Source of the DNA: an uncultured Gammaproteobacteria bacterium
Lineage (GTDB): Bacteria > Patescibacteriota > Microgenomatia > Levybacterales > UBA12049
NCBI GenBank assembly: GCA_964497535.1
Contig: CAZCCG010000001.1
Span: 194,858 to 258,857 of the forward strand
Reading direction: 5' to 3'
Length of the DNA stretch: 64,000 nt
Shown in pieces: positions 8,400 to 47,579 of this stretch (positions are counted from its first letter, which is position 1; every line of letters starts with the position of its first letter). Under the pieces are notes generated by a model. The model was not told the origin of the DNA. It did no database searches and worked only from the letters and a program-made list of their open reading frames with translations. The position numbers and the translations under genes are program-made.

Positions 8400-8429
8400 A
8401 CCTATAAGTATACCAAACCTACTTTATTA

Positions 8430-8465
8430 CACACACCCGGTGTGTGGTAGGTAGACACATAAGGG
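8430..8465 (+). repeat. 36-bp palindromic element, copy 1 (CACACACCCGGTGTGTGGTAGGTAGACACATAAGGG)
   Basis: Member of a 5-copy family with consensus GCACACA-yCCGG-TGTGTGC-yAGsTAGACACAT. Lies about 35 nt upstream of the msrB start on the opposite strand. Confidence 0.75.
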
Positions 8466-8517
8466 TTTTAAAAGAAAAAAGGGCAACCCGCTAATAGCGA
8501 ATTGCCCATAAGTGTAG

Positions 8518-8838
8518 TTAGTCTTCCGGGAGCCAGATATTTTCCCATTGCTGGATAGCATCAATCATGGGTAATAAGTCCCTCCCTTTTTCTGTCAGGG
8601 TGTACTGGGTACGGATTGGAGGTGTACTATATACCTGGCGTGAAACAATGCCATACTGTTCCAATTCTTTGAGGCGCTCCGACAGCATGCGCGGACTGAT
8701 TCCTTCTACTATGATCTGGAGTGCGATGAACCCTTGCGGATTGACAAGTGCCCGCAGGATTTGAAACGTCCACCGTTTGCAGATCAGGTCAGCTGCTTGC
8801 TTACAACGCTCTTGAGTATAGTCAAAAGTATAGCTCAT
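8518..8838 (-). CDS. HxlR-type (MarR/DUF24 family) winged-helix transcriptional regulator
   Basis: The track ORF (8518..8922) opens with TTG. The likely ATG start gives MSYTFDYTQERCKQAADLICKRWTFQILRALVNPQGF...RMLSERLKELEQYGIVSRQVY...YTLTEKG, an HxlR signature with a conserved N-terminal Cys. A TATAAT box at about 8905-8915 lies upstream of it on the minus strand. Confidence 0.75.
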   Translation of the reverse strand: MSYTFDYTQERCKQAADLICKRWTFQILRALVNPQGFIALQIIVEGISPRMLSERLKELEQYGIVSRQVYSTPPIRTQYTLTEKGRDLLPMIDAIQQWENIWLPED

Positions 8839-8943
8839 GATCTCTTCCCCTTTGTAACTACTCTGCTCTCGGTACCTGGCACAAATGCCAGTACTCGGTA
8901 ATAACTGAGTATTATACCTCAAAATAAGCCTGAAGAAAAATTA

Positions 8944-8979
8944 GCACACACCGGATGTGTGGTAGCTATAAAAATAAAG
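8944..8979 (+). repeat. 36-bp palindromic element, copy 2 (third arm replaced by the U-tract of a terminator)
   Basis: GCACACACCGGATGTGTGGTAGCTATAAAAATAAAG. Sits immediately upstream of the HxlR-type gene on the minus strand. It abuts the terminator hairpin GCACCCTT..AAGGGTGC of the 9020..9436 gene. Confidence 0.75.
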
Positions 8980-9019
8980 CACCCTTAAGTTTTACCTCAA
9001 GGGTGCGGTGTGCGAAGAC

Positions 9020-10235: not shown

Positions 10236-10279
10236 TTGTAATTTCAAAACTACCGAAAGAAGCGTATAATATTCCATTT

Positions 10280-10315
10280 GCACACACCCGGTGTGTGCCA
10301 GCTAGACACCTAAGG
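10280..10315 (+). repeat. 36-bp palindromic element, copy 3
   Basis: GCACACACCCGGTGTGTGCCAGCTAGACACCTAAGG in an intergenic region between the higher-GC module and the restriction-modification module. Confidence 0.75.
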
Positions 10316-10433
10316 AAATCTGCTTTCAAAATAACCATTCCCGGCGTATAATAGGCTCAAGTGAAACTAAAAGACTTGCCCACCTTTCAATTTCCATAAG
10401 AAACATATAAGTTTAAATATTTTTTATAAAGAT

Positions 10434-11156
10434 ATGAACGAAAGTCAAAAAAAAGAAATACTAAATAAATTTAAAGAATTTTTCGAGACAACAATTGCTG
10501 TTAACCATCTCAAGAATTTGAATAAATTAACAAAGTTAACAGCCTTTGAATATAACCCATTTCTCTTTATTTATCTCGCTAAATTTTTAACAGGTACTAG
10601 TGATTCACAAAGTTTAGCAAAAATTTTAATTTATCCAAGAATTCTCGGAACATCAATTACTACTAGTTTTGGACAGAATTTACAAAATGCTGCCCCCAAA
10701 CTATTTCAATCAGTATTGGGGTCAACAACATCAGGAATCGACTTGGAATTCATAGACCAAGTTGATAAAAGGAAAAAATATTGTCAAATTAAATCTGGAC
10801 CAAATACTATAAACAAAGATGATGTTGAAACTATTTCAAATCATTTTAAAGGTGTAAGAGGAATAGCCCGCATTAATAACGTTCAAGTGGGATTAGATGA
10901 TTTAGTAGTTGGTGTTTTGTTTGGTACAGAAAAACAGTTGAACGGAAATTATAAAAAAGTTATGCAACAACACACTGTTTTCGTTGGAAAAGAGTTCTGG
11001 TATAGATTAACAGGTGATGAAGGGTTTTACGCTGATCTTATTAAAGCATTCGGAGATGCTGCAATAAAGACAAACGGAAAAGCTACGCTTGAAAGAGTTG
11101 TTAATGCTCTATCAATAGATATTGAAATAAATTTTATAAATAAGGAATTAAAATAA
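10434..11156 (+). CDS. putative type II restriction endonuclease (PD-(D/E)xK-like), partner of the adjacent C5 methyltransferase
   Basis: 240 aa. Candidate catalytic segment GIDLEFIDQVDKRKKYCQIKSG. Sits immediately upstream of a Dcm-type methyltransferase on the same strand. No recognisable housekeeping family. Confidence 0.4.
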   Translation: MNESQKKEILNKFKEFFETTIAVNHLKNLNKLTKLTAFEYNPFLFIYLAKFLTGTSDSQSLAKILIYPRILGTSITTSFGQNLQNAAPKLFQSVLGSTTSGIDLEFIDQVDKRKKYCQIKSGPNTINKDDVETISNHFKGVRGIARINNVQVGLDDLVVGVLFGTEKQLNGNYKKVMQQHTVFVGKEFWYRLTGDEGFYADLIKAFGDAAIKTNGKATLERVVNALSIDIEINFINKELK

Positions 11157-11199
11157 TGTTTTAGTAGAAATAATCATAGTTCTATATAGTAAATAACCA

Positions 11200-12516
11200 T
11201 TGCATAATGTATTGGTTACTATCCATAATAGAGATATGGATAGTAAAAATCTTCTTACCGTTTCAGATGCTGCAAAACAACTGAATGTATCTCCAGATAC
11301 AATTCGTAGATGGGAGAAAAAAGGGCTAATTAGAGGAATACGATCCGAACATAATTATCGTCTTTTTAGTTTGAATGAACTGAAACGTATCTATAATAAA
11401 ACCCAAGGAACTTCACAAGAAAATAACTACAAAATTCTTAAAACAAAGAAAAAAACTAAATATACATGTATAGAACTTTTTGCGGGAACTGGTGGTACCG
11501 CGTTAGGACTCGAACATGCAGGGCTTCAACATGTTCTACTTAACGAGTTCGATAAAAATTGTGTTGCAACCCTTAGAAGAAATAGGCCAAAGTGGAATGT
11601 ATTACATGAGGATGTTTCAAAAGTTGATTTCAAGAGATGGAAAGGGAAAGTAGATATTGTTCAGGGAGGTTTTCCATGTCAAGCATTTAGTTATGCAGGG
11701 AAAAAACTTGGTTTTGAAGATACAAGAGGGACATTATTCTATGAATTCGCGCGTTGCATAAAAGAAGTACGACCCAAAATAGCAATGGGAGAAAATGTAA
11801 GAGGATTACTTACTCATGAAAATGGAGAAACATTGAAAGCAATGACTCAAATTTTAGATGAATTAGGATATAACGTAACTTACAAGGTGGTAAAAGCACA
11901 ATATTTAGATGTACCACAAAAAAGGGAAAGATTGATAATAATTGGAGTTAGAAAAGATTTAAATATCCCCTTTATTTTTCCAAAAGAAAAAGATTATACA
12001 ATTTCGCTTCGTGAAGCATTGAAAAACGTTCCCAAGTCTTCAGGTCAAGAATATCCTGAAAAAAAGAAAAAGATTATGAAACTTATTCCACCAGGAGGTT
12101 ACTGGAAGGATTTAATACCAAAGTTGCAAAAAGAATATATGGGTGCCAGTTATTATATGGGTGGTGGAAAGACAGGAATGGCACGAAGATTATCGTGGGA
12201 CGAACCAAGTCTTACTCTGACATGCGCTCCTGCCCAAAAACAAACAGAACGATGTCATCCAGAAGAGACGAGACCATTAACTGTTCGAGAATACGCTCGT
12301 ATACAGACATTTCCTGATGAATGGGAGTTTGTCGGTTCTACAGCGTCACAATATAAACAAATAGGCAACGCGGTACCAGTAAATTTAGGGTATCATATGG
12401 GACGGTGTTTAATTGTAATGTTAGATGGAGTAAAACAAGCAGAAAATATGGATGTGATTAAGGAATTTAAAGAAAATAACCCATCAGTATACAACCCTGC
12501 TTCATTTTCTTTATAA
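11200..12516 (+). CDS. DNA (cytosine-5)-methyltransferase with N-terminal MerR/excisionase-type HTH (SsoII/MspI-like regulatory methyltransferase architecture)
   Basis: Motif I FAGTGG, motif IV PCQ (GFPCQAFSYAGK), motif VI ENV (GENVRGL), motif VIII QKRERLIIIG, and C-terminal GNAVP. N-terminal HTH TVSDAAKQLNVSPDTIRRWEKKGLI. The start may be the internal MDSKNLL. Confidence 0.85.
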   Translation: MHNVLVTIHNRDMDSKNLLTVSDAAKQLNVSPDTIRRWEKKGLIRGIRSEHNYRLFSLNELKRIYNKTQGTSQENNYKILKTKKKTKYTCIELFAGTGGTALGLEHAGLQHVLLNEFDKNCVATLRRNRPKWNVLHEDVSKVDFKRWKGKVDIVQGGFPCQAFSYAGKKLGFEDTRGTLFYEFARCIKEVRPKIAMGENVRGLLTHENGETLKAMTQILDELGYNVTYKVVKAQYLDVPQKRERLIIIGVRKDLNIPFIFPKEKDYTISLREALKNVPKSSGQEYPEKKKKIMKLIPPGGYWKDLIPKLQKEYMGASYYMGGGKTGMARRLSWDEPSLTLTCAPAQKQTERCHPEETRPLTVREYARIQTFPDEWEFVGSTASQYKQIGNAVPVNLGYHMGRCLIVMLDGVKQAENMDVIKEFKENNPSVYNPASFSL

Positions 12517-14371: not shown

Positions 14372-14393
14372 CAAGAATCATGAATCATGAATC

Positions 14394-15299
14394 ATGAAGT
14401 TACTCTCTGTAGAGTATAATAGTTCCATGTGGTTTTGGTTTGCTTTTGTTTCAGCGGTATTAGGAGCCGCCGAGGTAATTCTCAATAAGAAAAGTCTGCA
14501 CAATGTAAGTTCTGCTGTTCTTACCTGGGCTCTTTTTACACTTTCTCTTCCGATTCTGGCATACATTGCATTAAAAGATGGTATGCCTTCAGTAAATCAA
14601 CTGTTTTATATGGGCGTATTTGGATCTTCGTTGGCATTTGCTTTTGCCAAAACAATTACCAACGAAACATTAAAAAATAACGTAGTCTCCAAAATATTTC
14701 CCCTGACAGCATTTAGCGGCATCTTCACCTATATATTCGGATTATTGTTGTTATCTGAAACCATACGACTTGTTCCGGTACTGGGACTGCTCTCCATCAT
14801 TGCGGGGTCATATATTATGAATGCAGATCAGGCAAAAGAAGATTTCCTCAAGCCTTTCAAGTTGTTATTTACTACAAAGGCATCTGTATTATTTCTTATA
14901 GCTATCATGCTAGGAAGTCTCACTGCAATTTTTGATAAAGTCGGTTTGAATAACACAGCTCCTACCAGTCCGGCATTCACCATATTTGTGGAACAACTTA
15001 TTATGTCGATACTCATGACGGTTTATGTATGGAAGAAAGAGAGAAAAACATGGGGTAAAGAGCTCAGAAATAATTTCTGGATGTTACTTCTCAATAGTAT
15101 TATGTTTATTGCTGTTTCCCTGTTGGTATTTACGGCGTATATAGGCGGGCCGGTCGCTTTGGTTCTGGGAATAAAAAGACTCCAGATATTTTTTATCCTG
15201 TTGATGGGGTATTTGTTTTTCAAAGACAAACCCACAAAGCATATCTGGGTTGCAACTCTGATTATGGTTATTGGTGTAATCATGATTAAGATCGGGTAG
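14394..15299 (+). CDS. DMT superfamily (EamA-like) transporter
   Basis: 301 aa, about 10 TM helices in two EamA-like halves. Confidence 0.65.
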   Translation: MKLLSVEYNSSMWFWFAFVSAVLGAAEVILNKKSLHNVSSAVLTWALFTLSLPILAYIALKDGMPSVNQLFYMGVFGSSLAFAFAKTITNETLKNNVVSKIFPLTAFSGIFTYIFGLLLLSETIRLVPVLGLLSIIAGSYIMNADQAKEDFLKPFKLLFTTKASVLFLIAIMLGSLTAIFDKVGLNNTAPTSPAFTIFVEQLIMSILMTVYVWKKERKTWGKELRNNFWMLLLNSIMFIAVSLLVFTAYIGGPVALVLGIKRLQIFFILLMGYLFFKDKPTKHIWVATLIMVIGVIMIKIG

Positions 15300-15327
15300 A
15301 TAAACTCATTACTGTAATATATAAATC

Positions 15328-15376
15328 CAACTTCGAATAATTACAACGAACTATGAACCACGAACCATTCACGTAT
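15328..15376 (+). repeat. 70-bp repeat family, partial copy (direct orientation relative to the copy at 16918)
   Basis: AACTTCGAATAATTACAACGAACTATGAACCACGAACCATTCACGTAT aligns with AACTTCTAACTACAATGAACTCTGAACAATGAACACATAACCT. Confidence 0.55.
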
Positions 15377-15514
15377 TAGTAAGCACTAATTTCTAATATC
15401 TAAATCCTAAATAAACACCAATGTTTTAATAATTAAAATTTTGTAATGCGGATTTGTTTGGAAATTTGAAATTGAAAATTAGAAATTTGTCTGTGCTATA
15501 CTTGTTCTCCTCCT

Positions 15515-16861
15515 ATGTCACTGACCCAAACCATAAAAAAAATTAAAGACCTTATTACCGGGGAAGAAAAGAGTTTTACTATAACGCCGGAGCTTGCCGA
15601 TTGTATTGAGACTATGGAAAATTCCTCTCTCAATTTATTTATTACGGGAAAAGCGGGAACCGGTAAATCAACGTTGATTGAGTATTTCAGAAATACCACC
15701 AAGAAAAAAAGTGTAGTCCTGGCACCGACAGGTCTTGCCGCAATCAATGTAAAAGGACAGACAATTCATTCATTCTTTCTTTTTCCTCCTCGGTTTATCC
15801 AACCGCGAGATATCCATAAACGCAGTAATACCAGAATGTATCGGGAATTGGATACGATTATTATTGATGAAATTTCTATGGTTCGGGCAGATGTGTTGGA
15901 TGGCATTGACCATTTTCTGCGTCTTCATGGCAAAGATAAAACACTGCCGTTTGGTGGTATTCAAATGATTTTTGTAGGAGATTTGTATCAGCTGCCGCCG
16001 ATTGTACGGCGAGAAGATATGCAGATTTTTTCGCAATTCTATGAGTCTCCTTATTTTTTTAGTGCCAATTCTTTCTCGAGTGCTTCATTTTCGGTGATAG
16101 AACTTACCACGATGTTTCGTCAAAAAGATGAAGCTTTCATAACGATGCTCAACAAAATTAGAATTGGCGATATAACTATTTCGGATTTGCAAATGGTAAA
16201 TGATCGAATTGTCATAAAAGATTATGAAAAAGTAAGAAAAGAATATATAACTCTTGCAACAACCAACAATATTGTTGCCGCGATCAACGATACGGAATTG
16301 GCCAAAATTAATCATCCACAATTTATTTTTCAAGCAATTATTGAAGGAGATTTCCCCCTTGAAGAGAGAGCATTGCCGGTTGAGATAACGCTGAAGTTAA
16401 AAAAAGGAGCACGGGTTCTTTTTGTCAAAAATGATAAAGGAAAACGATGGGTGAATGGGACACTAGGTACAATAGCAGATGTTTCTGCCGATGAGATCAA
16501 AGTAAAAATTGAAGACAATGGATTTCACGATATCGTAACTGTTGAGAAGGAAGAATGGGAAAACATCCGTTATGAATATGACGAAAAAAACGGAGAAGTA
16601 ATCCCGATTATCCTGGGCAAGCTCAAACAATATCCACTTAAATTAGCATGGGCAATTACTATTCATAAAAGTCAGGGAATGACTTTTAGCAGAGTCAATA
16701 TTGATTTTTCAAGGTCTCCTTTTACTCATGGACAGACGTATGTTGCCCTGAGTCGTTGCAGAACAGTGGAAGGAATTGTGCTGACCAAAAAAATATGGCC
16801 CAATGATGTTATTGTCGATGAACGCATCGTAGAATTCTCCAAATCCCTCTCACACCGCTAA
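15515..16861 (+). CDS. Pif1/RecD-family ATP-dependent DNA helicase
   Basis: 448 aa. Walker A GKAGTGKST, IIIDEISMV, the Pif1 signature region, and C-terminal IHKSQGMTF...GQTYVALSRCRT. Confidence 0.8.
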   Translation: MSLTQTIKKIKDLITGEEKSFTITPELADCIETMENSSLNLFITGKAGTGKSTLIEYFRNTTKKKSVVLAPTGLAAINVKGQTIHSFFLFPPRFIQPRDIHKRSNTRMYRELDTIIIDEISMVRADVLDGIDHFLRLHGKDKTLPFGGIQMIFVGDLYQLPPIVRREDMQIFSQFYESPYFFSANSFSSASFSVIELTTMFRQKDEAFITMLNKIRIGDITISDLQMVNDRIVIKDYEKVRKEYITLATTNNIVAAINDTELAKINHPQFIFQAIIEGDFPLEERALPVEITLKLKKGARVLFVKNDKGKRWVNGTLGTIADVSADEIKVKIEDNGFHDIVTVEKEEWENIRYEYDEKNGEVIPIILGKLKQYPLKLAWAITIHKSQGMTFSRVNIDFSRSPFTHGQTYVALSRCRTVEGIVLTKKIWPNDVIVDERIVEFSKSLSHR

Positions 16862-16917
16862 CAAGTATAAATTAGCAGTTAGCAGTAAATTGTAGTCAGA
16901 ATTGTTTGTTGTGGGTT

Positions 16918-16990
16918 ATGAGTTCATAGTTATGTGAAACTTCTAACTACAATGAACTCTGAACAATGAACACATAACCTGTTGCTGTTG
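16918..16990 (+). repeat. 70-bp repeat family, left copy flanking the ABC transporter gene
   Basis: ATGAGTTCATAGTTATGTGAAACTTCTAACTACAATGAACTCTGAACAATGAACACATAACCTGTTGCTGTTGT. Its reverse complement is found at 18788-18856 with only a few mismatches. Confidence 0.8.
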
Positions 16991-17022
16991 TGTGACTGTG
17001 CAAGCATTGTTACAATAGACTC

Positions 17023-18741
17023 ATGCACCAGATGATACAGGCGTTCAAGCTTGCCATTCCATATATTAACCGCTATCCCAAATTTTGGCTGTATTTTTTC
17101 ATGCGGCTTCTTACTACCATTGCCGAGGTTCTGGTACCGGTTCTGGTAGGGTACATTATCGTGCTTTTTACCAACAAAGCCCCGAGCGCAGATATTTACC
17201 GCTGGACCGGGGTACTTGTTGCTATTTTAATCTTTAGCCCCATGCTTGATAAAATATCGTTTGTAAATGCGTGGTATATTTCATTTCGCGCGGCTCATGA
17301 CTTCCGGCGGGATGCGGTTAGAAGACTGCGTCATACTGGACTTGCGTTCTGGCAGGAAAACGACCGGGGTAATGTCCTCAAAATTATCGACCAGGCATTT
17401 GAGCATTTTATTTATTTGTGCGGCAGTATTGTGCATTCCTATGTACCCTTTATCGGCAAAATTATTGTCATTTTTATCAGTACTACTTTTATTGATCCGG
17501 TTATCAGTATTATCTTTTTGATTGATGCAGTTTTCTTTTCACTCAATATCAGAATTATTGTCCCGAAAGAATCCGAAGCAGGAATTCGGGAACGAAAAGC
17601 TCAGGAGTCTGTGTATGGACGAATGAATGAATACATTACCAACTATAAAACAGTTCTGTATCTCAATTTATTCCATCGGCAGGATGAAGAAATCTCCCGA
17701 TATAACGAAGCCGCATATACGGCATATACCCAGCGGGAACGATTGTCGGGACTGAAGTGGTATTTCAATAACCAGACTCATGCTATCTGTGTTGCAGCAA
17801 TTATCGCGTATTCAGTATGGCAGGTACTCACCGGTAATTTGCAGGTAGGTATGTTGACTACCATTGTCTTTTTTTCTTTGCGTATTGCCGAGAACATGAC
17901 CGAATTTGTATGGCAATTATCAGAATTGGTAAAGTACAGCAATAGCTTGCAGCGGTACACCGATACATTTGCCACAGTACAGGAACACTACTCGGATGCA
18001 GTAAGTAAAAAAATTGATTTTGAAAAACTGGTACTCCAACAAGTATCTCTCCAACAAAAAGACCGGGAGACATTGCGCAATGTAAATATGGAAATTAAAA
18101 ACGGTGAAAAAGTTGCAATCGTTGGCTTTACCGGCAGCGGTAAGACAACACTGATTGATATATTGCTTCAGGCAAATACCTCCTATACCGGTGATATTTT
18201 TATCGATGAATATAATTATCATGATGTTCATGTACAGGACATCGCAAAAGTGTATAGCATTGTTCCGCAAGACGTGCAGCTGTTTCAGGGGACACTCAGA
18301 GACAATATTGCTATCGATTCGGGTATAACGGATACGCAGTTGCATGCTGTTGTTACTGTCTCATGTCTGGATCCCTTGGTTGAAAAGCTGCCTCATCGAT
18401 TGCAAAGTCATATCCATGAGGGTGCATCCAATATTTCAGGAGGCGAGCGGCAGAGAATCGGCGTAGCACGGGCGCTCTTGCAGCGGCATCCGGTGCTGAT
18501 TTTGGATGAAGCAACTGCCAGCCTGGATCCCAAAACAGAACGTGATCTGATTACCAATATTATTGCCGCGTATCCGAAGATGACGATTCTTTATATAACT
18601 CACAAATATTCGCTGCTGAATTTATTTGACAAAATTATCGTCATGAATGAAGGATCAATTATCGAACAGGGATCATTTGAGCACTTAGTAGAAAAAGGCG
18701 GATTATTCAAAGATCTGTATGAAGCAAGTCAGATGCAGTAG
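17023..18741 (+). CDS. ABC transporter, fused permease/ATP-binding exporter (type I ABC exporter)
   Basis: 572 aa. N-terminal 6-TM domain. Walker A GFTGSGKTT, signature ISGGERQRIGVARAL, Walker B VLILDEATASLD. Confidence 0.85.
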   Translation: MHQMIQAFKLAIPYINRYPKFWLYFFMRLLTTIAEVLVPVLVGYIIVLFTNKAPSADIYRWTGVLVAILIFSPMLDKISFVNAWYISFRAAHDFRRDAVRRLRHTGLAFWQENDRGNVLKIIDQAFEHFIYLCGSIVHSYVPFIGKIIVIFISTTFIDPVISIIFLIDAVFFSLNIRIIVPKESEAGIRERKAQESVYGRMNEYITNYKTVLYLNLFHRQDEEISRYNEAAYTAYTQRERLSGLKWYFNNQTHAICVAAIIAYSVWQVLTGNLQVGMLTTIVFFSLRIAENMTEFVWQLSELVKYSNSLQRYTDTFATVQEHYSDAVSKKIDFEKLVLQQVSLQQKDRETLRNVNMEIKNGEKVAIVGFTGSGKTTLIDILLQANTSYTGDIFIDEYNYHDVHVQDIAKVYSIVPQDVQLFQGTLRDNIAIDSGITDTQLHAVVTVSCLDPLVEKLPHRLQSHIHEGASNISGGERQRIGVARALLQRHPVLILDEATASLDPKTERDLITNIIAAYPKMTILYITHKYSLLNLFDKIIVMNEGSIIEQGSFEHLVEKGGLFKDLYEASQMQ

Positions 18742-18787
18742 TCATTGTATTTAGTAGTTTGTATCTGGTATTTGGTATAAAAGCGAT

Positions 18788-18856
18788 ACAACAGCAATAG
18801 GTGTTCATTGTTCAGAGTTCATTGTAGTTGGAAGTTTTACACAACTATGAACTCAT
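18788..18856 (-). repeat. 70-bp repeat family, right copy (inverted relative to 16918..16990)
   Basis: ACAACAGCAATAGGTGTTCATTGTTCAGAGTTCATTGTAGTTGGAAGTTTTACACAACTATGAACTCAT is the reverse complement of the left copy, with more than 90% identity. Confidence 0.8.
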
Positions 18857-18929
18857 TGATTGTTTCTTTGATAGCTTTTCTATATAATTCTTTGCGGTTA
18901 CCCTAATAAAACTATCGTGGAGGAAGTAC

Positions 18930-19394
18930 ATGTCTGGGGGTAAGCTTGACCAAAACGCAATTGAGGAGATCATCCCACATCGCTATCCATTCCTCTTCAT
19001 CTACGAAATTGAAGAGGTAGACTTTGGCCATCGGGCTGTGGGTCTGATCCGCGATGTAGCAATATTTAGGGAAGTGCTTCATGGACACTTTCCCGGATAC
19101 CCGGTCTTTCCCGGTGCGCTTCTGGTGGAGGCATTGGCAGAAGTTGGGGCTATCGCGATGCTTGGTATGGAGGCTAACCGTGGAAAGCTTGCTTTCATTA
19201 CCGGGCTAAACAATTGGAAGTTTCGCAAACCGGCTCTTCCGGGTGTTATGCTGCGATTGGAGGTTTCACTAACTGCGTCACGAGGACAATTCGGACGAGC
19301 ACACGGGTGTGTCACAACAGCCGCGGGTGAACTCGTATGTGAAGGAGATTTCTCGTTCGCCCTTGGTGCCCGTCCCCCCGGGATGGAGGGATAA
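18930..19394 (+). CDS. fabZ: 3-hydroxyacyl-ACP dehydratase FabZ-like (hotdog fold), on a higher-GC island
   Basis: 154 aa. HRYPFLFIYEIEEV...HFPGYPVFPGALLVEALAEVGA...FRKPALPGVMLRLEV matches FabZ. GC about 52% against about 35% flanks. GGAGG Shine-Dalgarno site. Confidence 0.75.
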   Translation: MSGGKLDQNAIEEIIPHRYPFLFIYEIEEVDFGHRAVGLIRDVAIFREVLHGHFPGYPVFPGALLVEALAEVGAIAMLGMEANRGKLAFITGLNNWKFRKPALPGVMLRLEVSLTASRGQFGRAHGCVTTAAGELVCEGDFSFALGARPPGMEG

Positions 19395-19447
19395 CCACAA
19401 CCGCGCCGGTGGTGGGAACTTCGGTTCCTATCCCGGCGCCTTTATAT

Positions 19448-21049
19448 TTAACCAGTAATCTTTTGGATAGGAAGAGATATATAGAAAGTACATCCGGATC
19501 TGGCAGTTTTTGTATTGTTACTTTCAACCCACAGATTGCCGCCACTTCTTTTTATGATTTCATAGGAAATATATAACCCGATCCCAAGACCGGAAAATAT
19601 GTGATCTTTATCCTCGATTCGATAATATCGTTGAAATATCTTTTTCTGATGCTCGGGTTTTATACCAACTCCATAATCCTGGATACCGATAATTATTTTT
19701 TCTCCTTGTTCCACAGCGGTAACAACCACTTTTTTTGCATGGGGAGAATACTTAATTGCATTGGTCAGCAGGTTAATAATAACTTGATTGATGCGCTCTT
19801 TATCGGCAAATACCCGCGAATTTATCTTCTTCTTGCGATTTTTTATAACAAGCGTATGAGGACTTGTGGTTGCTTGAATAACTTCGACAGTATCATACAA
19901 AAGTTCTGTTAGAGGAAAGTATTCATTATGAAATTCGAGTTTTCCAGCTTGTATTTTGGATACATCAAGTAAGTCACTGATAAGCAGAGTCAATTTATCA
20001 ATTTGGGTATTCATTTTACCCAGATATAACCGCGCTTGTTTATTGGATGATCTGGTAAGTTTCTTTTGTAATGTTTGGTTAAATAATTTAATAGTAGTAA
20101 TAGGAGTTTTTAACTCATGGCTTGCCAGACTGATAAATTCATCTTTACGCTGGTCATATTTCTTGCGTTCACTATCAGTTGCTGCCAGGGTCATGGAAGT
20201 AAGCACCGTAACCCCAATGAAACTTTGCAGAAGCAAAAGCCGTTCACTGAGCCGTCCTGTCCCAAATGGACCAAACCCCTGTATGGTTTCCAGAATGGCA
20301 AAAAGTGAAATAACAACAACAGCAGTAACTGCTCCACGTTGCCCAAACCGTAGAGATGCCCAAATCAGCGGCGGAAAAATAAAATATGTTACCGGTGTAC
20401 CTTCTTTGAAAATATGAAATAGTCCGTCAAAAATTATAATACTGATGATTGTTGTGGCTAGTGCCAAAAGAAGTAATTCAATGGTTTGAGATATGCGTAG
20501 TGATACTGTTGGCCGTTTTGACCACATGAGAAGAAATGGTGTAACCAGGATGATACTAATCAGATCTCCAATCCACCACGCTCGCCAGGTGACAAAATAA
20601 GAATGGGGATTGAGAAACTGTCCCACAAAAAGACTCGATGTCCCAATCGTTGCACTGATCCCTGCACCAATGGGTGCAACAAGAAATGTAAAGAATAAGA
20701 TATCCTGCAAGCGTGCAAAAGATCGTTCCACTCCACTGCGTTGGAAAAGATAGGCACCGATGAGCGCTTCCAATGTATTTCCTACAGCAATTCCCAACGC
20801 AATCGGGGCAGTTGCGCCTATGGTTATATTTACGAGAAATGCGGCGATGGTAATTGCGGGCCATAAACGATATCCGAAAAGAAGGAGCGCTGCCAGAGAG
20901 ATACCCGAGGGGAGCCAGATAAGGGTTGCAAAGCCACTTACTGCATCAAAACTAAGACCAAACTTTGCTACGCCAAAATAGATAACAAAAAGAGTTATTA
21001 TTTTTACACCATCGATGAGATTTGGATGTTTCATTCCCAAATGGTACAA
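19448..21049 (-). CDS. sensor histidine kinase with N-terminal MASE1-type membrane sensor domain
   Basis: 533 aa. An 8-TM MASE1-like region. H-box LASHELKTPITTIKLFNQTL. HATPase_c (NLLTNAIKYSP...DYGVGI...GLGIGLYISYEI). Confidence 0.8.
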   Translation of the reverse strand: MYHLGMKHPNLIDGVKIITLFVIYFGVAKFGLSFDAVSGFATLIWLPSGISLAALLLFGYRLWPAITIAAFLVNITIGATAPIALGIAVGNTLEALIGAYLFQRSGVERSFARLQDILFFTFLVAPIGAGISATIGTSSLFVGQFLNPHSYFVTWRAWWIGDLISIILVTPFLLMWSKRPTVSLRISQTIELLLLALATTIISIIIFDGLFHIFKEGTPVTYFIFPPLIWASLRFGQRGAVTAVVVISLFAILETIQGFGPFGTGRLSERLLLLQSFIGVTVLTSMTLAATDSERKKYDQRKDEFISLASHELKTPITTIKLFNQTLQKKLTRSSNKQARLYLGKMNTQIDKLTLLISDLLDVSKIQAGKLEFHNEYFPLTELLYDTVEVIQATTSPHTLVIKNRKKKINSRVFADKERINQVIINLLTNAIKYSPHAKKVVVTAVEQGEKIIIGIQDYGVGIKPEHQKKIFQRYYRIEDKDHIFSGLGIGLYISYEIIKRSGGNLWVESNNTKTARSGCTFYISLPIQKITG

Positions 21050-21088
21050 CCATACTGATTATAGAGATACTTTTGGTAAATGCAATCC

Positions 21089-22276
21089 TTATCTCTCAAA
21101 AGCGGATTCTTTGGAGATGCCTTTTCTCATGATTTGACTGGTAAGAACCAGACACAGGAAGCATGCTGCTGCCCCTCCCAAAAACGGCGCGGCAATAGTG
21201 AGTGTTGCCAATGCCCCACCGACAAGCGGCCCCAGTATCATCCCGATACTTTGATACGAGGTATTAATTCCAAGCATTGTTCCTTGGGATTGAGCATCAG
21301 TTTCACGCGACACAATTGTTGGAATGAGTGTTTGGGCAATACCGTTGAGAAGTCCCAAAATCAGTATTTCACCGATAAAAAAGGCGAGAGAGGTTGTAAA
21401 GTACATTGCAAGAAACGAACTGCCAACGATGAAAAATGATAGGGCAATGGCTTTTTTGGGTCCCAGAAGCTTTGAGACATTTCCTACAATAAGTGCTTGG
21501 GATATGAGCCCGACAATACCAAATACCGAAAACAACAGCGCATTTTCGCTTGTTGTGATATGTAGTATATTTTTGGTAAAGGGCTGAAAGCCATAAATAA
21601 TAGCGCATGAAAAAGCAGTAAAGAATAAAAAGGTAATAATAAATGTTGCGCCAACATTGGGATCAAAAAGTGCATGCCATAGTTTTTTGAAATCAAATAG
21701 TTTTTCTTGTTTTACTTGCCCGATATGTTTGTTGGTTTCAGGTAAAACAAGAGCGGTAAGGATTACTGCAATAATTGAAATTGCTGCGGCTATCAAAAAC
21801 GGCAATGTTTCGGAAATGCCAACTGTCAGTCCCGCAATTGCCGGCCCAAAAATAAATCCAAAGCTAAATCCCGCGCCTACCAGTCCGAATCCTTTTGCGC
21901 GCTGCTTATCAGTGGTTGAATCGGAAATAACAGCCATAGCTACTGGGATATTTCCTGCAGTAATTCCATCAAGCGCCCGGGCGAGAAATAAAACAAAGGC
22001 ATTTGGTGCAAATGCCATCAGGAGAAATGAGAGTGCGGTTCCGGTGATTGAAAGAAGCAACATTGGTTTTCTCCCATATTTATCAGACAGTCTTCCGATA
22101 ATAGGAGTTGCGAAAAATTGACAGACTGAAAAAATTGCAAAAAGCAGCCCATTTTCAAAATCAGAAAGTCCAAAGTGTTTGGAATAAGAGTAAACAATCG
22201 GGATAATAATGCCATATCCCAGGGCATTGACTATAATAATTAAGACAATAATAAGTAAATTTTTGTTTTTCAGCAT
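21089..22276 (-). CDS. MFS transporter (TetA/multidrug-efflux-like)
   Basis: 395 aa, 12 TM. MFS motif A GRLSDKYGRKPML. Confidence 0.8.
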   Translation of the reverse strand: MLKNKNLLIIVLIIIVNALGYGIIIPIVYSYSKHFGLSDFENGLLFAIFSVCQFFATPIIGRLSDKYGRKPMLLLSITGTALSFLLMAFAPNAFVLFLARALDGITAGNIPVAMAVISDSTTDKQRAKGFGLVGAGFSFGFIFGPAIAGLTVGISETLPFLIAAAISIIAVILTALVLPETNKHIGQVKQEKLFDFKKLWHALFDPNVGATFIITFLFFTAFSCAIIYGFQPFTKNILHITTSENALLFSVFGIVGLISQALIVGNVSKLLGPKKAIALSFFIVGSSFLAMYFTTSLAFFIGEILILGLLNGIAQTLIPTIVSRETDAQSQGTMLGINTSYQSIGMILGPLVGGALATLTIAAPFLGGAAACFLCLVLTSQIMRKGISKESAFER

Positions 22277-22347
22277 ATCTTCTTGGGAAAATATATTATA
22301 TCAGTTTTGCTGGCAATTTGCTCAAAAAATCCCTATACTTTTATTAG

Positions 22348-23703
22348 ATGAAGAGTATTCAATTTTTGGGAGCAGCGGGAGAAGTGACAGGATCCTCATA
22401 TCTTTTGACCGGACACGATGACAGTAGCATTGTTATCGATTTGGGATTATTTCAAGGGTCAAAAGAAATTACAGACCACAATTATGATCCGCTTGGTTTT
22501 AGACCGTCTGACATCAAAGGTGTATTTCTCACTCATGCACATTTGGATCATGGGGGTCGCTTGCCGCTTCTGGTTTTTGGAGGCTATTTTGGCAAAATCT
22601 ATATGACTGCACCGACGGCAGCTCTTTTGGCATTATCCCTGACTGACGCGGCAAAAATTGCTCAGGAGACATTCGACCATGCACCGCTCTATGGCATGGA
22701 AGAAGTAGAAAAAGTTTTGGAAATGATTGAAATTGTTGAATATGGGAAGCAATTTCAGGTGGGAGGATTTTCTATTACATTTCGCGATGCCGGACATATC
22801 TTAGGATCTGCCAGTATAGAAGTTGTCGATACTTCTGATAAACAAAAAATAGTCTTTAGTGGTGATTTGGGCAATACACCTGAAGATATTGTCAAACCTA
22901 CCGAATATATCGAATCTGCTGACATTGTAGTGATGGAATCTACCTACGGAGATTCAACCCATCCCAAAGAAGATCCCACAGAAATACTGGGGCAGGAGTT
23001 GCAAAAGATTGATCAGGCAGGTGGAGTACTTCTGATTCCTGCTTTCTCATTGGAACGCACCCAGGAAGTGTTACATCGTATTCATCACCTCAAAAAAGAC
23101 GGCAAAATACGTGGGGATACCCCAGTTTTTTTGGATAGTCCCATGGGAATTCGGGCAACCCTTATTTTTCGGGAGTTTAAAACCTTTTACAATAAAGAAA
23201 TGCAAAGTCATACTGATGATCCATTCGGATTTGAGGGGTTGGTTGTTACGGAAGACGCAAAAGATAGCAAGGCAATTATTAAAGCTATGGAACCCAAGGC
23301 CATTATTGCCGGTTCGGGTATGATGTCAGGAGGCAGGATATTGCATCACGCGCTCAATTATTTATCCGATCCCAAAACAACAGTCCTTTTTGTGGGATAT
23401 CAGGCAGAAGAAACAGCAGGACGCAAAATTCTGGAAGGCGCGCGGAATGTAAGAATTTATGATAAGAATGTACAAGTAAAAGCTGCTATCCGGGAGATAA
23501 AGACGCTCAGTTCCCACGCTGATTCTCCAAAGCTTCTGGACTGGGTTTCTCATATCAAAAATGTAAAAAAAGTATTTTTGGTACATGGAGAAGAAAAACA
23601 GCGGCAGGCATTGGCAGACAAAATCAAAGGAGTTGGTATTACAGATATTATCCTGCCGCAATTGGGTGGCCAACATTCCTTGACAGCCAAAACGAAGGAA
23701 TGA
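22348..23703 (+). CDS. beta-CASP family metallo-beta-lactamase-fold RNA-metabolising hydrolase (RNase J/CPSF-like)
   Basis: 451 aa. HAHLDHGG, then beta-CASP motifs (ESTYGDSTH, HAD near the C-terminus). Confidence 0.75.
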   Translation: MKSIQFLGAAGEVTGSSYLLTGHDDSSIVIDLGLFQGSKEITDHNYDPLGFRPSDIKGVFLTHAHLDHGGRLPLLVFGGYFGKIYMTAPTAALLALSLTDAAKIAQETFDHAPLYGMEEVEKVLEMIEIVEYGKQFQVGGFSITFRDAGHILGSASIEVVDTSDKQKIVFSGDLGNTPEDIVKPTEYIESADIVVMESTYGDSTHPKEDPTEILGQELQKIDQAGGVLLIPAFSLERTQEVLHRIHHLKKDGKIRGDTPVFLDSPMGIRATLIFREFKTFYNKEMQSHTDDPFGFEGLVVTEDAKDSKAIIKAMEPKAIIAGSGMMSGGRILHHALNYLSDPKTTVLFVGYQAEETAGRKILEGARNVRIYDKNVQVKAAIREIKTLSSHADSPKLLDWVSHIKNVKKVFLVHGEEKQRQALADKIKGVGITDIILPQLGGQHSLTAKTKE

Positions 23704-23751
23704 CTGTTTTCCCAAAGAGTTCTGGCAAGCTCATCTGGTACAATAGGGCAT

Positions 23752-24468
23752 ATGATGAAATTATTTCAGAACAAACAACTCTGGCAAGTGCTGTTTTATC
23801 TTTTTGTTATGGTTATTGTTGACAATTTTTGTCTCCAAAATTTGGATTCTCCCAATGAATTGGTCAAGTGGATGACGACGTGGACGAAAGATCCCAATCT
23901 GAAGTTGGAATACTTTCGGACCGGCAGTGTTATTGTAGGTTTTCCCTCATGGGCTGATAGTCTTATCTGGGTTGTCATAACACTTCTATTGTGGATTACC
24001 AACCGCAAGAAATTCCTGATGCTTCCTCTCATTCTCTATTGTGCATGGATTACTTTTTGGGTGGGTGCTGCGGTGGCAATCTTGTCCATAAATCTATGGA
24101 ATCCCCACAGTGGTGGAGCAGAAGTTTTACTTTCAGATGCATTTTTGCTTTGGGTAAGCAATATTGTCGTCTTTGCAATCTGGTATTGGATACTGGATCA
24201 TGATAATCAGTTGGAGCATAAAAAAGATAACCGTCATCGAGTGCATTTTATGTTTCCGCAAAAAATGTCCCCGGTACCGGGATGGGAAAATTGGATTCCC
24301 GGCTTTGTGGATTATTTATTTATGTCATTTAATACTAGTACTGCATTTGGCGTATCTGAGACAATCGTTATGACAAAAAAAGCAAAACTGTTGATCATGC
24401 TGCAATCGGTAATGTCTTTGGTATTATTTGCCATGATTGCCGCCCGAGCCATCAATATCATCCGCTAA
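23752..24468 (+). CDS. integral membrane protein (DUF1345-like)
   Basis: 238 aa, about 5 TM. Conserved FVDYLFMSFNTSTAFGVSE segment. Confidence 0.4.
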   Translation: MMKLFQNKQLWQVLFYLFVMVIVDNFCLQNLDSPNELVKWMTTWTKDPNLKLEYFRTGSVIVGFPSWADSLIWVVITLLLWITNRKKFLMLPLILYCAWITFWVGAAVAILSINLWNPHSGGAEVLLSDAFLLWVSNIVVFAIWYWILDHDNQLEHKKDNRHRVHFMFPQKMSPVPGWENWIPGFVDYLFMSFNTSTAFGVSETIVMTKKAKLLIMLQSVMSLVLFAMIAARAINIIR

Positions 24469-24518
24469 TACGCTTTTACATACGACGATTGTTCTTCGGA
24501 AGTTATAGATAACAGAGG

Positions 24519-24851
24519 TTAATACGCAGTTTTGCCGGGAGAAAGCGGTACCATGTGGGGGCCTGAATAATAGTGCCCTTGTGATTGGAACAGTTGTGGA
24601 TTGGTTGCCAGGAAATATATAAAGAGAATTGCGGTAAGGAATGTCACAATTGCGGGAGTAAGAATCACAACTTTAACCCATGACGGCCATTTCATCCAGA
24701 GAAATGTGAAAATCACTCCCAGTGGATAAAAGAACAATAATAAGAGAATAGTGATAATCGTTTTTGTGTCGTATGAAAGGTCTGCAGATGATGAGCGTTT
24801 TTTCTGTGCCATACTATTATTAAGACGAATTCCTAGGAAAATGTCAAGCAA
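24519..24851 (-). CDS. small membrane protein
   Basis: The start is probably the internal MAQKKRSS. Two TM helices. Lies downstream of the glycosyltransferase gene. Confidence 0.4.
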   Translation of the reverse strand: MLDIFLGIRLNNSMAQKKRSSSADLSYDTKTIITILLLLFFYPLGVIFTFLWMKWPSWVKVVILTPAIVTFLTAILFIYFLATNPQLFQSQGHYYSGPHMVPLSPGKTAY

Positions 24852-26208
24852 GTGGATGAGAAGTCAGATATTGCGCAGTATGTTCCCAAAACAGATGTAC
24901 ACCGGTTGATGTCAGCTCTATCACATGGCCGTCTTTTGCGTCTTCTTCAATGCGGCATTTGACCATTTCCCCAAAAATTCCAACCCGTTCACACCAGGTG
25001 ATAAATTGAGCAGATGGTTTGGAATGGAACGGCAGAACCAGTCCTCTCCAAGCAGAAGCCATAGCCAAAAGCTCCTGGCCCCGCTGGTTTTGCAGTGGAT
25101 CATCCATGCGTGCTTTTTCAAAGAGCTCTTGTTCTATATGATGGCCCGGTATGAGATGATGGCGTCTGAGAAATTCCAGATTATCCCGTTCCTGTTGTCC
25201 GACCGGATTTGAAAACAGAAGCAGCGTTCCTCCCCGTTGGGTAGGATTGCACAGACACTTAAATGCCTGCTCACTGGGTTTGGTAATTTCCAATGAGATC
25301 GTTGTCTGGTGAAAAAGCAGATCATAATTATTGACGGTTCCCCGATCATGAGATGATACATGGAGCTGGACAAATGGTTTATCCAGCATATACCCCAGGA
25401 AGTTTTTGGTATAGGGTGCGTCTTTTACTACGATATGGAATAAAAATCGCTCGGAGATTTGATGCAGGTTATCGATTAAATCTGCCACAAATGTTGTGCC
25501 GACTGCTGCTCCTGAAATGGGTACTGACACATGGATATGTGATTTTTTTTCAGGATCCAGCTGGTCTTTCCGATTGGTGAGTTGTTCATGAGTCAGATGT
25601 CGGGTCAGATCAGGACTGACAGGATAAGCTAACACTTCAAAGTTGACCGGTGGGATATGGTAGGTTTTGCCAAAGTGTACGAGCTTTTCACGAGTTGTAA
25701 AGCTGGGAACAAAAATAATATCGGCACCATCCACATACCAGATTGGATGAGGACTATCATCGGTTACCTGGACTACCAGAATAATCCTGACTTGTCTTTT
25801 TTTCTCAACGATGCCTTTAATTTCTGCAAGTTGATGGGCCAATCCAAAATGCGTGGCAACGATAAGGATTGTCTGGGGCAAATCGATCCGTTCATCCAGG
25901 ATAGTAGTAAGTTGTTGATACAACAATTTAGTATGGCTTCGAAGCATTAGCCGATACACATAAGCGGCAATATCCTGTAACCATCCTCGTTGTACCACCT
26001 CAAACATTGCACGAGTGATGGGGTGAATACTGATAAAACGGTGAATCCAGCTGATTGATTTGTCCTGGGTTCCCAAAAGAACCGGTGTTATTTCTTCAGG
26101 CAGTCCCCGATAGAGTGCGTCGGTAACACGCAAATGTCCCAAGCCTGCGGGGGCGAAAGCAAAAACTAAAACCAATGACTTTTTCTCAAGAATAGAGAAA
26201 GTATTCAT
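24844..26208 (-). CDS. GT-B fold glycosyltransferase (MGDG-synthase/MurG-like, family 28-like)
   Basis: 454 aa. The N-terminal FAPAGLGHLRVTDAL resembles the glycine-rich loop of MGDG synthase and MurG N-domains. Weak. Confidence 0.45.
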   Translation of the reverse strand: MNTFSILEKKSLVLVFAFAPAGLGHLRVTDALYRGLPEEITPVLLGTQDKSISWIHRFISIHPITRAMFEVVQRGWLQDIAAYVYRLMLRSHTKLLYQQLTTILDERIDLPQTILIVATHFGLAHQLAEIKGIVEKKRQVRIILVVQVTDDSPHPIWYVDGADIIFVPSFTTREKLVHFGKTYHIPPVNFEVLAYPVSPDLTRHLTHEQLTNRKDQLDPEKKSHIHVSVPISGAAVGTTFVADLIDNLHQISERFLFHIVVKDAPYTKNFLGYMLDKPFVQLHVSSHDRGTVNNYDLLFHQTTISLEITKPSEQAFKCLCNPTQRGGTLLLFSNPVGQQERDNLEFLRRHHLIPGHHIEQELFEKARMDDPLQNQRGQELLAMASAWRGLVLPFHSKPSAQFITWCERVGIFGEMVKCRIEEDAKDGHVIELTSTGVHLFWEHTAQYLTSHPLA

Positions 26209-26239: not shown

Positions 26240-26272
26240 ACAAGTTAGTGAAGTGTATAAAAAAAGCCCCGG
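26240..26272 (-). terminator. intrinsic terminator (GCCCCGGC-GCTA-GCCGGGGC plus U7) for gene 26275..26841
   Basis: Perfect 8 bp GC stem. On the minus strand it is followed by TTTTTTT. Confidence 0.8.
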
Positions 26273-26274
26273 CG

Positions 26275-26841
26275 CTAGCCGGGGCTGTAAGTATCACCAG
26301 AGGGAAGAGCCAAGAGCACCATTGGTGAATTGAGAACCCGAGGTTCATAAACCAGCACTTCGGTGCTCACATACTCCTTCTTTACCAGGACCCTGCTCTG
26401 CAGCATTTCCTGGTTGGTGAAGATCACGAGCGGTCCATTCCTAGGTGCCCACAGGCACCCGAAGAACCAGCGGGCATCAGTCTCGCTGGGGAAGAGTTCG
26501 TAGACGACCCGAGGCAACGCCTCGGCCCAGTCAAAACCGTAGTCGTTGTCCATATGCATGGGCACGACACGGTCCGAACCCAGGTCGGGGATTTCCTGAC
26601 AGATAAACCGCCACACGTGAGGTTCATCGGCGAGCCGGAAGGAGGCGAGTACCTCCCACAGTTTGTTGTGAAAGGCAATCATGCTCCCCGGCTGGTAATC
26701 CTGGGTGAACCGGGGCGGCTTGCCCGCCGGCATCAGTTCCACCTCCTCGAGGTGAGATTCCTCGTCCCAGGTGCGCATGCGGATGAGTTCTTCATCATCC
26801 AGGTAAAACCCGTGGATCGGATCGCCAACCTGAACACTCAT
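26275..26841 (-). CDS. hypothetical protein (higher-GC island gene 1)
   Basis: 188 aa. AAGGAG Shine-Dalgarno site 7 nt before the ATG. GC about 55%. Own promoter and terminator. Confidence 0.55.
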   Translation of the reverse strand: MSVQVGDPIHGFYLDDEELIRMRTWDEESHLEEVELMPAGKPPRFTQDYQPGSMIAFHNKLWEVLASFRLADEPHVWRFICQEIPDLGSDRVVPMHMDNDYGFDWAEALPRVVYELFPSETDARWFFGCLWAPRNGPLVIFTNQEMLQSRVLVKKEYVSTEVLVYEPRVLNSPMVLLALPSGDTYSPG

Positions 26842-26890
26842 GGTAACTCCTTCTGAAATGTGCGCTGAGGTACAGTTGTACCATCATAGA

Positions 26891-26930
26891 GGAATATAGC
26901 ATACCCGCCCCTGCGAGTCAATACTACAGG
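26891..26930 (-). promoter_or_regulatory. consensus sigma70 promoter P1 (TTGACT-N17-TATATT), one of three near-identical copies
   Basis: On the minus strand: CCTGTAGTATTGACTCGCAGGGGCGGGTATGCTATATTCC. Confidence 0.7.
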
Positions 26931-26984
26931 CTTCTGTCTCTGGAATAAGAAAGGGCGGCCCCGTATGGGGTCGCCCTGTTGGAT

Positions 26985-27470
26985 TTACTGCTGAGTAGTT
27001 CTCTCGGGTTCTGGGTCAGGGGGAGCCTTGCTCATGTCAATGCTAGCAATTGGCGTGAGGCTTCCCTCCTCGTCGCTTCCTCGAGGGAGGAAGGTTACCT
27101 CCCACCCGCACGTGCGGTAATGTTCAGCAACTCGCCGATAGACGAGTCGGGCATACTGAGGCGGTACAGTCCCTTCCCATACGAATAGTGCTTCGTTGAG
27201 TCGTACCACCGATATGCTCACGTCGAAGTCATCGGTGGTCAACAGCGAATCGATCGCTAACTCGCAGACAGCGTTCGCTGCTTGAATCACGCGATCTACT
27301 CGTATGCGACGCCGCTTGATCGACGGTGGCGGTCTGTCGCGGGAACCCATTTCACTCCTCCCCTTCCATAGTCTATGAGCGCCTCCGTGGATACCAGCTA
27401 GGGTACCCACAAAGCCACTCACAGCAAAAGGATTAGCTTTACCACGAACTATTAAAGAACTACTAATCAT
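26985..27470 (-). CDS. hypothetical protein (island gene 2); likely start at the internal MGSRDRPP preceded by GGAGGAG
   Basis: 161 aa ORF. The internal Met at about 27350 has a strong Shine-Dalgarno site. Terminator hairpin GGGCGGCCCC..GGGGTCGCCC at 26949-26982. Confidence 0.45.
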   Translation of the reverse strand: MISSSLIVRGKANPFAVSGFVGTLAGIHGGAHRLWKGRSEMGSRDRPPPSIKRRRIRVDRVIQAANAVCELAIDSLLTTDDFDVSISVVRLNEALFVWEGTVPPQYARLVYRRVAEHYRTCGWEVTFLPRGSDEEGSLTPIASIDMSKAPPDPEPERTTQQ

Positions 27471-27516
27471 AAATAAGATAGAGTTTTTGTATCTACAGAA
27501 GGATAGATTTAGTTAG

Positions 27517-27557
27517 AGGAATATAGCAGAAAGAATAGTACATGTCAACACTACAGG
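27517..27557 (-). promoter_or_regulatory. consensus sigma70 promoter P2 (TTGACA-N17-TATATT)
   Basis: On the minus strand: CCTGTAGTGTTGACATGTACTATTCTTTCTGCTATATTCCTC. Confidence 0.7.
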
Positions 27558-27636
27558 ATGTTATGTTGAAGGAGGTGCCATTGACTGAAAAGGACTAAAG
27601 AAAACCCCCTTCAGCAGAAGCCGAAGAGGGTAACGA

Positions 27637-27882: not shown

Positions 27883-27911
27883 GTATGTCTCCTTTCAGAC
27901 ACCACTATTGA

Positions 27912-28304: not shown

Positions 28305-28313
28305 TACTACAGG
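28271..28313 (-). promoter_or_regulatory. consensus sigma70 promoter P3 (TTGACT-N17-TATATT)
   Basis: On the minus strand: CCTGTAGTATTGACTCCCGGACGTATGTATGCTATATTTCTTC. Coordinates plus or minus 1. Confidence 0.7.
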
Positions 28314-30666: not shown

Positions 30667-30671
30667 GTAAA

Positions 30672-31097: not shown

Positions 31098-31105
31098 ATA
31101 AGGTA

Positions 31106-47503: not shown

Positions 47504-47541
47504 AACTACATTATATCAAAAATGATTGTACACATCAGGTT

Positions 47542-47577: not shown

Positions 47578-47579
47578 AT

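Follow-up and report, generated by a model that had tools for sequence, protein, structure and literature searches.

What are the repeats of about 70 bp that surround an ABC exporter gene in a Patescibacteria genome? The locus lies in a 64,000-nucleotide stretch of DNA (hereafter the window) from an uncultured bacterium filed under Gammaproteobacteria and placed by GTDB in Patescibacteriota (Levybacterales; UBA12049), covering positions 194,858 to 258,857 of contig CAZCCG010000001.1 (GenBank assembly GCA_964497535.1). An initial annotation had described an inverted pair of repeats around the ABC gene and a third copy ahead of a Pif1 helicase gene. It had proposed a miniature inverted-repeat transposable element (MITE), an invertible or mobilisable cassette, or a structure acting at the RNA level. 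Our analysis points elsewhere. The element is probably a species-specific intergenic repeat derived from heptanucleotide arrays. A role for its full copies as local hairpins at transcript 3' ends is possible but rather doubtful. The two ideas combined, a species-specific palindromic repeat that grew out of heptamer arrays, resembles repetitive extragenic palindromic (REP) elements and forms local 3'-end hairpins, make up the interpretation that we favour, tentatively. The copies are as follows.

16918..16993, + strand: left full copy, in the Pif1/ABC spacer; nhmmer E 1e-25
18784..18856, - strand: right full copy, inverted, in the ABC/FabZ spacer; nhmmer E 2e-23
15329..15376, + strand: third copy, diverged and partial, in the EamA/Pif1 spacer; nhmmer E 0.0066

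A repeat finder run on the 64-kb window recovered the inverted pair as 59 gapless nucleotides (16918-16976 against 18798-18856) that are 93% complementary and lie 1821 nt apart. No other strong inverted repeat was present in the window. Allowing one 5-nt indel extended the similarity to 16918-16993 and 18856-18784. The described likeness of more than 90% between the two arms as reverse complements was thus borne out, at about 93%. A 22-mer common to both full copies had 0.00 expected matches across 100 shuffles, and an nhmmer profile built from the two copies returned them with E values of 1e-25 (left) and 2e-23 (right). The same profile detected the third copy in direct orientation, at essentially the coordinates first proposed for it; this copy is real but weak (E = 0.0066 in the window). 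Independently of the profile, the pattern GAAC-N(2-4)-GAAC-N(2-4)-GAAC occurred at exactly three sites in the 64 kb, where 0.05 were expected, and these sites are the three copies. A count of copies across the genome had been suggested; for the 64-kb window it is three, all detected inside 3.5 kb. The spacers that hold the copies are long (215, 161, and 188 nt), compared with a window median of about 50 nt.

Each full copy spans about 75 bp and shows the same order of parts: an inverted heptamer pair that forms a 12-13 bp stem-loop, three phased GAACnnn heptamers, and a tail.

16920..16959, unstranded: left-copy internal stem-loop, GAGTTCATAGTTA / TAACT-aca-ATGAACTC; DNA fold z -3.1
18815..18854, unstranded: right-copy internal stem-loop; DNA fold z -3.5; followed by T-rich ATTGATTGTTTCTTTG on the + strand
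16954..16971, + strand: three phased heptamers GAACTCT GAACAAT GAAC, left copy
18803..18820, - strand: three phased heptamers GAACTCT GAACAAT GAAC, right copy
15348..15365, + strand: three phased heptamers GAACTAT GAACCAC GAAC, third copy

A full copy opens with ATGAGTTCATAGTT; the partner of this segment, AACT-aca-ATGAACTC, lies about 12 nt further on, and the two give a stem of 12-13 bp with a 3-nt bulge. None of 200 shuffles was as stable as the stem-loop of either full copy (z -3.1 left, -3.5 right). The 3' arm of the hairpin leads directly into the three heptamers at an exact 7-nt phase (GAACTCT GAACAAT GAAC), and Tandem Repeats Finder (TRF) reported period-7 arrays of 3.1-3.4 copies at all three sites (15346-15367, 16949-16972, and 18802-18825). 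Each site holds three direct GAACnnn units, and each full copy has a further one in inverted orientation at a distance of about 20 bp. If AAC is taken as the reading phase, most of the repeat looks to us like a decayed heptamer array, in which the 5' arm would represent two inverted heptamers.

Comparison of the copies revealed which parts have been retained. The full copies differ by four substitutions and one 5-nt indel, with identical stems and heptamers. Three substitutions lie in the hairpin loop, whereas the indel lies wholly outside it; this focus of variation on the loop is suggestive, having been noticed post hoc in small numbers. The third copy aligns from the loop (AACTTC) via TAAyTACAAy through the three heptamers. 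Loop, 3' arm, and heptamers are all retained, whereas the 5' arm is missing, and the copy does not fold. Within its heptamers, GAAC is kept at all 12 of 12 positions, against 3 of 9 for the intervening spacer bases.

The heptamers of the element sit in a region rich in period-7 sequence. Autocorrelation at lag 7 in all three spacers was 0.38-0.45, compared with about 0.28 at other lags. Across the window, TRF returned 13 period-7 rows, where dinucleotide shuffles gave 1.8 +/- 1.2. The background in 901 kb of unrelated metagenomic loci was about 4.1 per 64 kb; these loci were metagenome contigs matching a Pif1 profile, with relatives at no more than 50% identity among the matches listed. Eight of the 13 arrays fall in four consecutive spacers at 14.3-18.9 kb, and 9 of 12 were intergenic when counted against the ORF map. 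Several of the neighbouring arrays have units unrelated to GAACnnn.

14375..14398, + strand: perfect heptamer array (GAATCAT)x3.4, filling the 22-nt YgjP/EamA spacer
15461..15489, + strand: heptamer array (GAAATTT)x4, upstream of Pif1
16872..16886, + strand: heptamer array (TTAGCAG)x2, just past the Pif1 stop
18747..18778, + strand: heptamer array (GTATTTG)x4.6, just past the ABC stop

The EamA start codon is itself the ATG of the last GAATCAT unit of the array at 14375-14398. Loss of mismatch repair does not account for the arrays, as the window encodes both MutL (44929-46677) and MutS (49407-52064).

The element appears confined to its own lineage. The named homologues of the ABC and Pif1 proteins are Patescibacteria proteins from metagenome-assembled genomes (MAGs). 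One Logan contig (L027, from SRR9179563; 10.9 kb) was 100% identical to window positions 14913-25851, in the same orientation and with no polymorphism. The nearest other orthologues were more distant, at 57-70% identity for ABC (L001, L002, L112, L113) and 75-77% for Pif1 (L028-L031). The ABC and Pif1 loci of these relatives have other neighbours; they carry neither a flanking inverted repeat nor GAAC heptamers, and BLAST detected no similarity to the element in them. The hairpin pattern had no match in JGI metagenome contigs, the heptamer pattern none in viral contigs, and BLAST with the element none among plasmids and phages.

The heptamer pattern alone was more widespread. It matched 24 places in GTDB representative genomes, none from the source genome; in all 24 the likeness was limited to the heptamers, and none carried the rest of the element. 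The matches were (ATGAACn)n arrays in Bacteroidota, Pirellulales, one Patescibacteria MAG (L016), and others. At 5 of the 24 places, inverted GTTCA units lie just upstream, giving a hairpin of inverted heptamer arrays; in L016 and L018 such a hairpin takes up the whole of a short spacer that separates two genes of the same orientation. Outside this set, an unrelated metagenomic contig (L092; GC 0.53) has long inverted arrays made of about ten AGTTCAT and about nine GTGAACTATGAACT units. These arms, of about 70 nt (744-817) and 120 nt (857-975), lie directly against the start of a gene for a Pif1-like helicase. A general association between Pif1 and heptamers was considered and rejected: across 84 Pif1 loci, 14 of 61 period-7 arrays lay no more than 400 nt from the gene, about as many as expected. 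Several Pirellulales MAGs (L004, L007, L009, L010, L014, L015, L020, L023, L024) contain a dispersed repeat in which a TGAACgtaaGTTCA palindrome is followed by TACAATGAACTATGAAC heptamers, bordered on both sides by aaacaaacccaattcaaaccca-like sequence.

Among known systems, the closest comparison is with intergenic heptanucleotide simple-sequence repeats (SSRs). Heptamers are the most over-represented class of long SSRs, which has been attributed to polymerase slippage (PMC4679880, PMC4692102). Bacterial heptamer arrays lie in spacers near start and stop codons, sometimes as inverted pairs; close relatives lack them in the corresponding spacer, no function is known for them, and Elizabethkingia carries near-identical heptamer-rich spacers (PMC4679880, PMC4692102). 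Known cases include the long SSRs of Mrazek et al. 2007, the short tandemly repeated repetitive (STRR) heptamers of cyanobacteria, GGGAATC in Xanthomonas, and TAACTGA heptamers in Beggiatoaceae, Cyanobacteria, and Bacteroidetes (PMC4679880, PMC4692102). The element shares with these repeats the short 7-nt tandem arrays in spacers near start or stop codons, the occasional inverted pairs, and the absence from the spacers of close relatives. It differs in its unit (GAACnnn or ATGAACn), in having three units only, in enclosing them in a duplicated module of about 75 bp with a hairpin, and in its host, a Patescibacteria MAG. It is best filed as a new lineage-specific case of this class.

A second likeness is to the REP elements and bacterial interspersed mosaic elements (BIMEs) of Enterobacteria and Pseudomonas, including the REP doublets that form hairpins (REPINs). 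These too are small imperfect palindromes in spacers at gene 3' ends, found in both orientations, and in their hosts they can stabilise upstream mRNA or terminate transcription. However, REP elements number in the hundreds and are linked to REP-associated tyrosine transposases (RAYTs), whereas the present element has three copies within 3.5 kb and no RAYT in the window. The arms of a REPIN lie tens of bases apart, compared with 1.8 kb here.

These comparisons are consistent with the following model. Arrays of heptanucleotide simple sequence would have seeded a small palindromic module, presumably through slippage, and the module would then have been copied into three consecutive spacers. Two copies would be young (about 93% alike) and one older (about 70% alike, and partial). 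The inverted layout around the ABC gene would reflect how the two copies were oriented when they formed, either through local duplication or through the split of a larger inverted array, and would define no cassette. The full copies would place their stem-loops, of 12-13 bp, where the Pif1 and ABC transcripts end. As the right hairpin is followed by a T-rich tract and neither gene by a canonical terminator, the stem-loops could help to form or protect these ends and so separate each transcript from the next, largely leaderless, promoter.

The genes around the repeats bear on this model and on its rivals. All four are co-oriented, and three of them, with the putative promoter of the ABC gene, are given here.

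15515..16861, + strand: PIF1-family helicase gene, flanked in direct orientation by the third and left copies
17023..18741, + strand: ABC exporter gene with fused ABC_membrane and ABC_tran domains, bracketed by the inverted pair
18930..19394, + strand: FabZ-like gene, downstream of ABC
17008..17016, + strand: putative extended -10 TGtTACAAT, 6 nt before the ABC ATG; inside the bracketed segment, downstream of the left copy

The gene context first described for the repeats stands. A single ORF (17023-18741, + strand) lies between the two arms, and the ORF downstream of the third copy (15515-16861) encodes a PIF1-family helicase. The box TGnTACAAT was found exactly 6 nt before the ATG in four ABC orthologues (the window, L001, L002, and L112) with 60-100% identity. 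Judged by established promoter architecture, TGnTACAAT-N6-ATG is apparently a conserved leaderless promoter geometry of this ABC family, and it is possibly more useful for annotating these genomes than the repeat itself. With such a promoter, the ABC gene would have its own start at about 17023, past the end of the left arm (about 16993), and only RNA reading through from Pif1 could then carry both arms. We found no canonical terminators or promoters above chance in the spacers, and in particular no canonical terminator after Pif1 or ABC. The FabZ-like gene, unlike ABC, has a GGAGGA Shine-Dalgarno sequence. Its composition is also distinct, with a GC content of 0.53 and a third-codon-position GC content (GC3) of 0.48 where the genome is at about 0.39, more than 3 standard deviations (sd) above the other genes. 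A foreign origin of the ABC gene was examined by composition as well; its GC3 of 0.435, against 0.333 +/- 0.067 for the window, is raised by just 1.5 sd.

Several explanations treat the inverted pair as a unit in its own right. Were the element a non-autonomous mobile element of MITE or REP type, two insertions, or the pair acting as a composite, could mobilise the ABC gene. We consider this unlikely, even with two young copies of 93% identity in a compact genome, a neighbourhood of ABC that differs in every relative, and the mildly high GC3 of the gene. Pif1 also lacks synteny in the relatives, and variable context is therefore not peculiar to ABC. In size class and intergenic location the element resembles MITEs such as the Correia elements of Neisseria, which are known to be co-transcribed and to have their hairpin cut by RNase III. 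It departs from them in structure: the ends of the unit, ATGAGTTCATAG (5') and TTGCTGTTGT (3'), are not complementary, and the palindrome is internal and restricted to the 5' half, which leaves the unit without terminal inverted repeats. There is no target-site duplication in the flanks of the left copy (GTGGGTT|...|GTGACTG), in those of the right copy (AACAATCA|...|ATCGCTT, reverse complement), or around the pair. Pfam searches of 77 of the 78 window ORFs of at least 80 aa revealed no transposase, integrase, resolvase, or RAYT-like protein, and no dispersal beyond 3.5 kb was seen, with no further copy in the window or the searched collections. The MITE proposal was thus not upheld. An invertible segment, in which recombination between the arms would flip the ABC gene as a phase switch, is the least probable of the explanations considered. 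Like invertons, the locus has inverted repeats that bracket a DNA segment, and perfect runs of up to 29 nt between the arms could support rare RecA-dependent inversion. Against this, no site-specific recombinase (Phage_integrase, Resolvase, or transposase domains) was found in the window, and typical invertons have far shorter arms. The bracketed segment comprises a whole gene with its putative promoter, such that a flip would not be expected to switch expression. Both the window and the Logan contig L027 show a single orientation at 100% identity, in a comparison of two independent assemblies. The cassette proposal, invertible or mobilisable, thus fares no better than the MITE. The third proposal was that the arms pair at the RNA level into a duplex of about 70 bp, which RNase III would cut or which would stabilise the ABC mRNA. 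Its energetics are correct: the predicted energy is -108 kcal/mol if one RNA holds both copies, and read-through from Pif1 is possible given co-oriented genes and no canonical terminator after Pif1. However, the promoter geometry shared by four orthologues implies a leaderless ABC transcript that should begin past the left arm, the local hairpin of each arm would compete with the duplex, and ABC orthologues in relatives have no such flanks. No Rfam family was found in 15200-19000, even at E <= 1, and at the gathering threshold Rfam returned tRNA-Asn only. A long-range duplex is accordingly very improbable, while the idea of an RNA-level structure plausibly survives in the form of the local hairpins.

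Two further explanations lie closer to the favoured one. The arms could be halves of one long inverted heptamer hairpin that once filled a Pif1/FabZ spacer, with ABC and its promoter inserted centrally. Contiguous inverted arrays whose arms are similarly long and stand about 40 nt apart do exist (L092 744-817/857-975; L016 3449-3526), and the arms are mirror-symmetric about the gene, with heptamers inside and hairpins outside. Yet no relative with an uninterrupted Pif1/FabZ spacer was found, and each arm already has its own small hairpin. Such a split is improbable, to about the degree of the mobile element, and would be compatible with a heptamer-derived repeat. The most serious rival, still a clear minority position, is that the heptamers form an operator or iteron array for a DNA-binding protein that regulates or bridges the Pif1, ABC, and FabZ promoters. 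Precedent exists in the heptad iterons: the omega ribbon-helix-helix repressor of pSM19035 binds contiguous 7-bp heptads, in both orientations, at several sites upstream of promoters, and the box A heptamers of P1 parS likewise are contiguous 7-bp units. The old copy keeps GAAC at an exact 7-nt phase while its spacer bases drifted; the three sites are intergenic and within 3.5 kb; the left-copy heptamers would lie about 45-70 nt upstream of the putative ABC start; and independence of orientation suits a site that works at the DNA level. In contrast to the heptad iterons, the sequence here is unrelated, each site has only three units, and no cognate protein was recognised. No candidate regulator lies beside the sites, and no small ORF resembling a ribbon-helix-helix protein was seen by eye (no profile scan of these was made). 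The third site lies some 145 nt away from the Pif1 -10. Nearby arrays built of unrelated heptamers point to a mutational process rather than to one protein. We found no match to the LexA box types compared, as the spacing fits neither GAAC-N4-GTTC nor GTTC-N7-GTTC.

The heptamer-derived repeat with local hairpins faces difficulties of its own. Since the third copy has no hairpin, the three copies cannot share a function that depends on one. No T-run follows the left hairpin, and both stems are AT-rich and modest in stability (-7 to -14 kcal/mol). The retention of GAAC in the old copy (12/12, against 3/9 for the spacer bases) is as compatible with a protein-binding motif as with slippage. The copy counts, moreover, describe the 64-kb window and not the whole genome.

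If the element is only a species-specific repeat, it matters little beyond the observation that streamlined Patescibacteria still gain heptamer repeats, as do cyanobacteria, Xanthomonas, and Beggiatoaceae. Its copies would offer substrates for recombination at two genes, with direct copies on either side of Pif1 and inverted ones on either side of ABC. The significance would be greater if GAAC heptamers proved to be a protein-binding or structure-forming signal across phyla, as the function of bacterial heptanucleotide arrays in general has been an open matter ever since their first description. Inverted-array hairpins occur in spacers of Patescibacteria, Bacteroidota, and Planctomycetota, and here three sites surround the Pif1, ABC, and FabZ promoters. 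That GAAC heptamer arrays with a nearby inverted heptamer form a functional intergenic class across phyla, either as a protein-binding array or as a structure-forming module, nonetheless seems improbable to us.

The window contains other small repeats. An exact 30-nt direct repeat, AAATTATAGCAGAAGCAAAGAGTGCTCCCC, at 30671-30700 and 31105-31134 brackets one glyoxalase-family gene (30720-31097, - strand), a second case in the window of a single gene bracketed by repeats. The final 7 nt of tRNA-Asn (31128-31200, - strand) fall within its second copy, and on the - strand each copy shows a hairpin followed by TGCTATAAT. A terminator/promoter module that was duplicated is one candidate identity for this repeat, a remnant attachment (att) site the other. 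A second small repeat family with the palindromic core TTGCACACACCCGGTGTGTG... has four copies of 65-100% identity, all in spacers (8427-8475, 8942-8990, 10278-10326, and 47540-47588), two of which flank an HxlR-type regulator gene (8518-8922).

Additional observations concern gene content. The MutL gene is adjoined by a gene for a stand-alone Peptidase_C39-like protein (46693-47139). A GC-rich block (26265-28313; GC 0.52) holds small genes without a Pfam family, strong GC-rich terminators, and three repeated promoter-like modules on the - strand (26890, 27517, and 28273; TTGACT/A-17-TATATT with TG); it resembles a series of paralogous small-gene cassettes. A restriction-modification pair at 10434-12516 consists of an EcoO109I-like endonuclease and a C5 cytosine methylase with an N-terminal MerR-type helix-turn-helix. 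The pair is probably foreign, given its GC3 of 0.20-0.22 against a window mean of 0.33. Finally, a 76-aa ORF at 13003-13233 matches DUF3276 (E 2e-10), which we take to be a nucleic-acid-binding fold of the Pur-alpha type.

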